Below, one piece after another: positions 2,400 through 3,433 of a stretch of DNA of 44,236 bases. Position numbers: made by a program. This stretch comes from an uncultured Methanosarcinales archaeon (lineage in GTDB: Archaea; Nanobdellota; Nanobdellia; Woesearchaeales; UBA12501). Within the stretch, counting starts at the first letter, position 1. Each line of letters starts with the position of its first letter. The stretch is from assembly GCA_964397315.1 (NCBI GenBank), contig CAYNHV010000008.1, positions 1-44,236 on the forward strand, given 5' to 3'.

Positions 2400-3433
2400 T
2401 CGAGCAGGGCTTGAGTGAGGGTTAGTTCCTTTGATTAATCCGAACTTAAGCTCAGTGAGAAGGGTTAAGTCGTCACAAGGTAGCTGTAGGGGAACCTGCA
2501 GCTGGATCACCTCCTTTTTTAAACCAAAGACAGAAGGGTCGCTTTTTCAGTTTCCTTATTACAATCAAAAATATGGGCCTGTAGCTCAGCCATGGGAGCG
2601 TGTTACGCTACCCTCGGACGCAACGCTAAGTGGGATATTCCTCGCTTTGCTCGGAAATCCCACGACCAGAAGCATTGCATTAGGCGTTACAGGCCTGAAG
2701 AATCAAACATATGGGCCTGTAGCTCAGCCTGGTAGAGCATCGCCCTTGCAAGGCGGGGGCCGTGGGTTCGAAACAGCCGGTTACGCTCAGCTGGCGCGCA
2801 ACAGCAAGGCCCATTCAACTGCGTTGAATGGACCGAATAATGTTGCAAACCCGCACAATGTTACTGGTTGGCGAAAGTCCCGCCGGGTCCATTCAAGAAA
2901 GCAATTTTTTCGACTTCAGTCGGAAAAATTGGTTTTTGAATGCTTAATAATGCCAGATGACTGAAAGGAGTCGGGATTTTGTACGAACACATTAAATCAC
3001 TTTCATTATTCACTAATGAAAGGCATTCAGTACCTTGTATTGAATGCCTGGCAAAGATATGATCACTGATCACGTTCATATTGATGAAGCCATGCATAAG
3101 TAAAGCACCAGAACGCTATTAGGTGGATGACTTGGCTCTGATGCTGAAGAAGGGTGCGACAAGCTGCAGAAATCTCCGGCGAGGCGCATGTAGCCTTTGA
3201 ACCGGAGGTCCCTTAATGAGACTTCTCCTTTGAATCCGTAAGGATGGGGAACGCGGTGAAGTGAAACGTCTCAGTAACCGCAGGAAAAGAAACCAAAAGG
3301 GATGCTGTTAGTAAAGGCGATTGAACGCAGCACAAGGCAAACTGAATCCTTTGCAGTAATGCAAAGGAGATGTGGTGTTGCAGGACTGCTATTAATATCC
3401 CAGCAGGAACAGCTGAATTCGCCTGGAACGGCG

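Follow-up and report, generated by a model that had tools for sequence, protein, structure and literature searches.

Families of BHB introns that have transposed between tRNA genes are found in the Thermoproteales (Fujishima et al. 2010, cited in bioRxiv 10.64898/2026.10.13.758758). As these introns are summarized there, related sequences occur in different tRNA genes, the need for a BHB motif limits their persistence, and no protein is encoded. The element described here, termed E, displays the same properties. It differs from the introns so summarized in having a conserved pseudoknot and hairpin core, in its concentration at tRNA position 59/60, in its additional presence outside introns at gene ends, with displaced gene copies and a strict polarity, and in its host, which belongs to a DPANN-type order.

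In Caldiarchaeum subterraneum an integrating mobile element disrupts a tRNA gene (PMC3293823). According to that account, a tRNA 5′ fragment lies beside the element and an intact, intron-bearing tRNA is adjacent, an arrangement that is also found with E, and the proposal made there, which links integration to tRNA fragments and intron gain, is shared here. However, the Caldiarchaeum element is 1.8 kb long and carries a recombinase, whereas E is approximately 70–110 nt, carries no gene and is itself the intron. Integrative elements are also described as leaving tRNA gene fragments (PMC9897764). Similar to the footprints outlined in that source, E is accompanied by partial tRNA copies beside intact genes whose ends are restored, but it has no integrase or cargo, is two orders of magnitude smaller, and is present as near-identical copies at many tRNAs. 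Guide RNA genes, as they have been outlined, are likewise small, structured and situated at the ends of genes, in sense orientation at 5′ ends and for the most part in antisense orientation at 3′ ends (47 antisense guides versus 18 sense). A link to tRNAs is seen for some of them, and their location shifts between species. Unlike guide RNA genes, E shows no C/D or K-turn boxes by our own reading, is accompanied by displaced gene-end copies, and has a role as a tRNA intron.

Titles and abstracts of the literature on Woesearchaeota/DPANN tRNA introns, archaeal intron transposition and MITEs give no description of E among the matches listed. New here are E as the core of a widespread T-loop intron, its presence at the ends of protein genes, its polarity, the repeats that end near gene ends, and the synonymous divergence of the repeat copies. 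E opens the arrival route of archaeal tRNA introns to direct tests. A single family can be traced across congeneric genomes from absence, to flank insertion with a displaced gene end, to a partial D-loop duplication and to a precise BHB intron, and this provides concrete alleles, splice-site predictions and, as RNA or DNA, a defined fold for testing.

The rRNA spacer locus

The window analyzed is a stretch of 44,236 nt, contig CAYNHV010000008.1 of assembly GCA_964397315.1 (C8 of the genome designated G000). Rfam matches place an rRNA operon in the window, with the SSU at 868–2515 and the LSU at 3098–6005. The spacer between them holds a tRNA-Ala and the first copy of E, which is situated at positions 2592–2669 of the plus strand and gives a score of 77.9 bits with covariance model R1, an MFE fold with z = −2.25, and pseudoknot covariation. 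Stem 1 (2596–2601 with 2610–2615) closes the loop GTTACGCT at 2602–2609, and loop positions 2602–2606 form a pseudoknot with linker positions 2620–2624. Hairpin 2 follows at 2631–2662 and the tail CGACCA at 2663–2668, all on the plus strand.

Copy 1 lies between two direct repeats, located by a repeat search. The left repeat (2563–2591, plus strand) is a displaced partial tRNA-Ala 5′ end, consisting of 12 nt of leader and tRNA nt 1–17; the right repeat (2701–2729, plus strand) is the start of the intact tRNA-Ala with the 12 nt leader. A 29-nt repeat of this composition had been reported as exact. It is present, but 28 of the 29 nucleotides are identical (97%). The E tail is separated from the right repeat by a spacer of approximately 32 nt (2670–2700, plus strand), which is single copy in the genome. 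Part of it, GTTACAGGCC, shows complementarity to tRNA-Ala nt 2–11, and by our reading the spacer may be similar to the 3′ part of the intron described next.

The tRNA-Ala gene itself is interrupted (2713–2891, plus strand). Exon 1 of tRNA-Ala(UGC), 2713–2772, extends to T-loop position 59 and is delimited by the Rfam tRNA match at 2713–2770 and by an intron-less ortholog in the congener G002. The 105-nt insert at 2773–2877 lies in the T-loop at 59/60 and displays an R1 match of 66.2 bits, BHB geometry and a rod-like fold. E occupies approximately positions 2774–2841 of the insert, and the 3′ part, 2842–2877, pairs back onto the E head. Exon 2, 2878–2891, comprises nt 60, the 3′ strands of the T-stem and acceptor stem and the discriminator A, and it matches the G002 sequence ending in GGGTTCGAATCCCGCCGGGTCCA; both exons and the insert are on the plus strand. 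ARAGORN detects no tRNA in the window, and Rfam recognizes only the 5′ part of tRNA-Ala (2713–2770, 29.1 bits), because the 105 nt interrupt the T-loop. In the whole assembly this is the sole tRNA found with a UGC anticodon.

A further copy of E is found at 37422–37492 (within 37406–37547, plus strand; R1 match 59.5 bits) and has the variant loop GCUCGC with the linker GCGAGC. It is bordered by 20-nt repeats at 37406–37425 and 37528–37547 (20/20 identical) and is situated where a protein gene in antisense orientation has its 3′ end; the open reading frame of this gene stops 9 nt past the repeat. The element at 29220–29293 on the minus strand (R1 match 32.3 bits) belongs to a related family, B, which shares the architecture of E and has another loop and linker.

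Structure of the element

E is a non-coding sequence of about 70 nt consisting of a 6-bp stem 1, a linker, a longer hairpin 2 and a tail. The loop of stem 1 is the conserved GUUACGCU, which is pseudoknotted to the linker. The linker has the consensus RCACGCAAYGCUAAG and the tail is CGACC. The stem of hairpin 2 covaries and its apex is conserved (YUCRCU-K-YGCUC type). As a candidate general repeat, the apex was rejected, with 22 matches versus 14 in a shuffled genome.

In the RNAalifold structure of 12 copies from this genome there are 13 pairs, and compensatory changes are seen in 10 of these. The first-pass annotation of a covarying, multi-copy element of about 70 nt is borne out. Among 73 positions, the C1 copy and the one at C8:2596 show only two differences, which together make up one compensatory pair. 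Folding energies of single copies are modest (z from −0.35 to −2.25). The common loop/linker form is GUUAC/GCAAY, with one A.C mismatch, and in other copies loop and linker are exchanged together to GCUCG/CGAGC, GCUUG/CAAGC, GGUAG/CUACU, GUUCG/CGAAC or GCUCA/UGAGC. With a register-restricted 5-nt window, the 69 distinct loop/linker combinations of 76 copies show a mean of 3.99 of 5 pairs versus 3.75 ± 0.05 for permuted linkers, and none of 1000 permutations reaches 3.99. The register-restricted test replaced an earlier and cruder one based on the longest contiguous run, which was null (3.43 versus 3.42).

Rfam returns nothing over E at E-value ≤ 10, in agreement with the earlier claim that no Rfam family covers the element; tRNA is the sole match at gathering score. 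Searches of five composite-repeat loci in genome G013 and of nine other loci also return nothing. That E is a new family is supported; it is structured and non-coding, has many copies, and its stems covary.

Copies and distribution

Model R1 was rebuilt here from the alignment of 12 E copies. A search of this genome gives 31 matches at E-value ≤ 1 and 21 at E-value ≤ 1e-3, slightly more than the 19 counted previously at the latter threshold. By our reading of the sequences only 13 of the 31 probably belong to the family proper, and the remainder would form three related families, B, C and D, in which the architecture of E is kept and the loops differ.

At E-value ≤ 0.01, R1 matches place E in 18 of the 41 related genomes, and the other 23 lack it; the positive genomes include 4/4 congeners and 9/16 other genomes of the taxonomic family. 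Of 151 genomes sampled evenly across the phylum, 10 give a match at E-value ≤ 1e-5, all ten from the same order or closer. Metagenomes yield 45 copies in 43 contigs by a strict 24-nt head pattern. A looser pattern gave about 200 matches in viral contigs, approximately the chance level, and none of 120 loci fetched was E-like by nhmmer. Near-identical copies occur at unrelated tRNA genes. For example, the copy on contig C26 shares 96% identity with one that lies at another tRNA of the congener G003.

The T-loop intron

The insert in tRNA-Ala shows the hBHBh′ arrangement of two 3-nt bulges, a 4-bp helix between them, splice sites in the bulges and flanking helices. The T-stem is GTGGG / CCCGC, the central helix is TTCG (2767–2770) with CGAA (2872–2875), and the bulges are AA/A and AG/T, where the slash marks the splice site. 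Joining 2772 to 2878 produces a sequence ending in GGGTTCGAATCCCGCCGGGTCCA and restores a canonical tRNA. The spliced form is the same as the G002 tRNA over the T-loop and 3′ end, and the T-stem is one base off (GTGGG versus GCGGG). The exon ends 2772 and 2878 follow from the G002 spacer tRNA-Ala, which is uninterrupted. Thus the insert is supported as a bona fide BHB intron with predicted splice sites at 2772/2773 and 2877/2878. Folding of the whole intron gives a rod (−39.6 kcal/mol, z = −3.05), with the E head paired to the 3′ part of the insert.

An intron copy had been noticed before and taken as a single diverged exception. That it is an intron stands, but it is no exception. T-stem, 4-bp helix and two 3-nt bulges are found in 11 tRNAs of 8 genomes (39 copies examined gave 13 rows, and 2 of the 13 do not have the 3-nt bulge geometry), and also in 16 of 19 metagenome candidates. 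The central helix covaries with no exceptions: the partner of TTCG is CGAA or CGGA, and that of TTCA is TGAA or TGAG. Inserts are about 60–120 nt long, and in all T-loop introns E begins 1–2 nt past the 5′ splice site. The intron of tRNA-Ala in this genome and a T-loop intron of the congener G004 share 83% identity over 146 nt. The G004 intron lies in a different tRNA, which by eye appears to be a tRNA-Val(UAC); across genomes the hosts, assigned in the same way, are probably Ala, Val and Gly. Homologous introns are thus present across isotypes, as in transposed introns. The T-loop intron at 59/60 is the commonest context of the E family.

Copies at gene ends

Fifteen of the 31 R1 matches in this genome have an Rfam tRNA match no more than 300 nt away, versus 1.2% expected, and three further matches adjoin tRNAs missed by Rfam. 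The association with tRNA genes reported previously is therefore confirmed, but it is not exclusive. Among the 13 copies of the family proper, four follow a sense tRNA 5′ fragment broken at D-loop nt 15–20. Another four are preceded by a tRNA 3′ fragment in reverse complement, which breaks off at the T-stem, and a tandem pair on C9 that is cut by a run of N accounts for two of these four. On this contig a 55-nt repeat in three copies had been listed; it is a tandem unit of E plus repeat, with approximately 26–30 nt common to all three. Two of the 13 copies are inside tRNA inserts, one abuts a tRNA 5′ end with no repeat, and two are at protein gene 3′ ends (SRP54 on C4, and 37422–37492 of the window). 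In relatives and metagenomes E is also found at protein gene 5′ ends, with the start codon within the repeat, and nested in or at the ends of other small repeats.

A flanking repeat (score ≥ 12, counted where no more than 18 nt separate the end of the upstream copy from the E head) is present at 30 of 79 copies versus 6 of 600 random sites. Repeat lengths range from 10 to at least 96 nt and the sequences differ from site to site. Along the E strand the order is outer flank, displaced gene end, E from head to tail, an optional unique spacer of 0–60 nt, and the intact gene. The intact gene is on the tail side of E in 30/30 classified repeat-bearing copies, a count that leaves out loci L017 and L077, which are inside another repeat. 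As a result of this polarity E is sense at gene 5′ ends and antisense at gene 3′ ends. Two origins of the spacer were rejected, 3′ transduction, as six spacers have no second genomic copy, and native flanking sequence, as the G002 alignment scores 122 versus 118 ± 3.5 with a shuffled spacer.

The outer end of the repeat appears to lie near the end of the gene, in case counts obtained by reading alignments. By these counts it would be 0–6 nt past the discriminator in 10/10 tRNA 3′ cases and 0–21 nt ahead of tRNA nt 1 in the 5′ cases. It would lie at the stop codon, within about 5 nt of it or past it in 6/7 protein 3′ cases, the exception being the 37422 copy of the window at 9 nt short of the stop, and 0–12 nt before the ATG in four protein 5′ cases. 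Breakpoints within the genes cluster at D-loop nt 15–17 and T-arm nt 49–57. On C1 the repeat is perfect (36/36), including 21 nt of upstream leader.

Divergence of the two gene-end copies is almost only synonymous at two loci, both in genome G003. In a 128-nt alignment of the copies at L096, 15 codons differ and 14 of these are synonymous by a count made by eye. At L092, 119 of 126 nt are identical, with five synonymous codon differences versus one non-synonymous. The peptide end ...ALMGFLKKIK* is encoded by the intact G003 gene, the displaced G003 copy and the G002 ortholog, with codons differing. The copies at SRP54 have the stop codons TAG and TGA. A dead fragment should not keep the meaning of its reading frame, so the L096 and L092 copies look like two alleles that each evolved as a working gene end and were then brought next to each other by recombination. 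This argues against simple target-site duplication.

Proposed routes: recombination and transposition

The reading we prefer, at a probability of roughly 0.45, is that one archaeal order harbors a family of small, selfish, non-coding elements whose conserved pseudoknotted core is E, and that the gene-end copies arose by recombination. The main habitat of E would be the tRNA T-loop at 59/60, where the host splicing endonuclease and ligase are predicted to be able to remove it because the ends of the insert form an exact BHB motif. Phenotypic erasure as a BHB intron at this position is the best-supported mode of persistence. For the gene-end copies we infer a route in which E would travel between lineages as a segment made up of E and an adjoining conserved gene end. 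The conserved gene would supply the homologous crossover with the incoming DNA, the structured 5′ head of E would be joined illegitimately inside the resident gene, and the resident gene end left behind would be the apparent duplication. An insertion would be kept only where the gene regains an intact end or where the sequence allows a BHB. Recombination of this type would explain the polarity, the ends of the repeats, the unique spacers and why the divergence is synonymous; tRNA genes would be preferred as the best-conserved anchors.

Several observations fit recombination less well. The perfect repeats that include non-conserved leader (36/36 on C1, and the 29 nt on C8) fit duplication in situ more simply, and near-identical copies of E at unrelated tRNA genes of one genome need a true transposition step beyond the model. 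The illegitimate joint is always at the E head, which the model does not account for, and at SRP54 the diverged part is the inner and not the outer one. Breakpoint clustering could reflect a site- or structure-specific nuclease. No donor arrangement was identified for any specific event. The leader-bearing perfect repeats, the breakpoint clusters and the movement between tRNAs mean that a transposition-like step is still needed.

A non-autonomous DNA transposon therefore stays live as an explanation, although we regard it as doubtful. E would be moved in trans by an enzyme that nicks the D-loop or T-arm sequence with long, variable staggered cuts, the repeats would be true target-site duplications, and short duplications inside a gene would leave the intron. 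IS1634-type elements do make long, variable repeats. Perfect repeats are found at most tRNA sites, where the breakpoints cluster as given above, tandem arrays of E plus repeat are found on C9 and in G003, and a D-loop copy on C2 displays only a 12/14 partial repeat, as a transposon would allow. However, the strict polarity is unexpected from a double-strand cut-and-paste enzyme, the outer repeat ends track gene ends, the synonymous divergence at L096 and L092 does not suit a copied target, and the 70-nt core has no terminal inverted repeats. Thus the flanking duplications recorded in the first-pass annotation exist, but gene-end positions, polarity and synonymous divergence speak against their being made by a transposase.

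Co-occurrence of enzymes with E was followed for RVT_1, TnpB and Y1_Tnp on the 41 genomes. A Y1 (IS200-type) gene is found in 8/18 genomes with E versus 2/23 without, a comparison among related genomes, several of them incomplete, and this favors a transposon moved in trans. On the other side, the congeners G001–G004 and the complete genome G032 carry E but no Y1 gene, and the resident IS200 has hairpins of the CCCCAACC-TTTA-GGTTGGGG type, which do not resemble the hairpins of E. TnpB is absent from genomes with E, save one weak match. No protein family recurs within 2.5 kb of E beyond synteny at 43 metagenome loci, which gives the transposon no linked gene.

It is also conceivable, at a similarly tentative level, that E represents a new gene-less mobile class, whose pseudoknotted single-strand fold would direct polar, end-seeking insertion by host or unrecognized enzymes, and which host tRNA splicing would then erase from the RNA. 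If this is true, E would be a living generator of archaeal tRNA introns with all stages caught, from the flank copy beside a restored gene end through the partial D-loop duplication to the clean 59/60 intron.

Spread through RNA is improbable. Here an excised, possibly circular, intron or a chimeric RNA would be copied to DNA and recombined into genes, in the manner of snoRNA or SINE retroposition or of the circular-RNA re-insertion proposed for C/D box sRNAs. Circularization and re-insertion are put forward for archaeal C/D sRNAs in the account of PMC6009581. Selection on a single-strand fold, the variable repeat lengths with a few extra bases at the head junction, and a main context as an intron predicted to be excised by the host are all as expected for an RNA intermediate. 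However, RVT_1 is found in only 2/18 genomes with E versus 6/23 without and in none of the E-rich genomes, being absent from G000, G001, G003, G007, G013, G014 and G032; that no reverse transcriptase is tied to E had been noted for this genome before. In addition the copies at gene 3′ ends are antisense, which a joining of sense RNAs cannot yield, and by our own reading no encoded CCA is present beside displaced tRNA 3′ ends.

Known classes of element were considered as well and rejected. A MITE does not fit two unlike hairpins with no terminal inverted repeats, a variable repeat length and no partner gene at 43 loci. An IS200/IS605-derived PATE or a REP-RAYT is set aside by the unlike hairpins, the presence of duplications and the partial Y1 co-occurrence. 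A SINE-like retroposon would have the variable repeats, but E is antisense at 3′ ends and RVT_1 is in 2/18 genomes only. An att duplication borne by an integrase is incompatible with an inserted piece of 70–140 nt that has no open reading frame and with repeats that differ by site. Neither is E like an integron attC site, in what we take to be the order of attC boxes.

Turnover between related genomes

The presence of E varies between congeners at one locus. The tRNA that follows a ferredoxin-like gene has no interruption in G004, and carries one E in this genome, one in G001, and two tandem E units in G003 at the same D-loop spot with second hairpins that differ. In G002 the rRNA spacer tRNA-Ala is intron-less, with no upstream E or tRNA copy, and the L092 locus has neither E nor the displaced copy. 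An empty site had not been seen earlier; the sites in G002 and G004 show that such sites do exist. Among three DNA read sets an empty allele was not seen, and the only signals were contig breaks at E and joints from spacers of other organisms. The direction from flank insertion to intron, as proposed earlier, is a conjecture.

E is retained at one tRNA D-loop site in this genome, G001 and G003. Together with the conserved loops and covarying stems across an order, and the constant start of E just past the 5′ splice site of T-loop introns, this is what would be expected if E were a host-functional RNA module, either an aid to pre-tRNA processing or folding or a stable intron RNA, that is shuffled passively with gene ends. 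We hold such a function to be improbable, as presence at a locus varies among congeners, 23 of 41 relatives have no E, copies are found antisense downstream of genes, at protein gene ends and nested in small repeats, and no conserved promoter is present upstream.

Effects on tRNA annotation

Standard tRNA finders give only 24 tRNA matches in this genome, which is 93% complete, and the low number is explained by E introns. The candidate splicing enzyme is encoded by one EndA catalytic-domain gene at C40:6653–6913. An ARAGORN call of a tRNA-Gly with a 1783-nt intron on C23 is false and spans two ordinary genes. The D-loop copy at C2:74171 is inserted in another tRNA, and the same insert is found in G007.

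Repeats that carry E, its parts or a related module

A non-coding repeat of ~200–300 nt is found in at least 6 copies in the related genome G013 (L018:1300-1640, on contig C22 of that genome, with further copies at loci L033-L036 and L041), and the copies are 80–99% identical to one another. Two units of the pseudoknotted element E are situated inside this composite repeat, tail to tail with a gap of 4–5 nt, and the pair is flanked by conserved, structured-looking sequence (GCGGGGAAACCAAGGTTTCCAGCC...). An Rfam search with the composite repeat gave no match.

The genome under study (G000) also has a larger repeat with an embedded E-related module (GAACGGCGUUACUCUGUUC...GGGAUUUCACUGCGCUCAAUCCC). 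The nine copies are at C25:16159, C1:97429, C11:26260, C11:33492, C19:27657, C1:139721, C3:69644, C33:5425 and C7:804. The flanks of this larger repeat are conserved over >150 nt (...ttggttaatccagac...), and it lies away from tRNAs.

On the metagenome contig L269 (~2495-2580), three head modules, each consisting of stem 1 and linker (~29 nt), form a tandem series that lacks the second hairpin. In G000, runs of N at C9:~17195-17300 and C22:~18130-18245 directly adjoin tRNA genes and arrays of tandem E units; the arrays may therefore extend beyond their readable part.

G000 carries an IS200-like unit at C20:6700-7350, which displays a 146-aa Y1 transposase and hairpins of the type CCCCAACC-TTTA-GGTTGGGG. 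A lone hairpin with the apex motif of E (AATGC-TCGCTACGCTC-GCATT) is located ~55 nt outside its left end, and the same hairpin is also present on C16.

tRNA genes and neighboring sequences

G000 is 93% complete and gives only 24 Rfam tRNA hits, 16 of them above threshold; ARAGORN run on the whole genome makes only 21 tRNA calls. Many of its tRNAs show multiple inserts at non-canonical positions, and thus the tRNAs called in this group fall far short of the full set.

Directly 3′ of the tRNA-Ala in the window are nested inverted repeats (2890-2942), with inner arms of 18 nt at 2898-2915 and 2918-2935 and outer arms of 19 nt at 2890-2908 and 2924-2942. These may be part of rRNA spacer processing. 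The tRNA-Ala of the related genome G007 (L097, contig C42) has an upstream E copy with a 19-nt repeat, and its T-loop holds a different, shorter insert of ~38 nt without E. The 3′ end of that insert, CGAAAG|TCCCGCC, is identical to the end of the window intron.

Another small element (GGGAGCUCCGG...CCGAGGCUUUAAUCAAAAGGCUCG) is positioned at tRNA 3′ ends in sense orientation, accompanied by 11–15-nt repeats of the tRNA end. It is found in G000 at C1:154400-154700, at C19:4027 and at window position 29220, and also at loci L019, L099 and L100. The second hairpin of some E copies (C26 and the congeners G001 and G003) corresponds, in reverse complement, to the first hairpin of this element. The C1 copy hosts a nested module of the E-like family B together with a 42-nt duplication of its own 5′ end.
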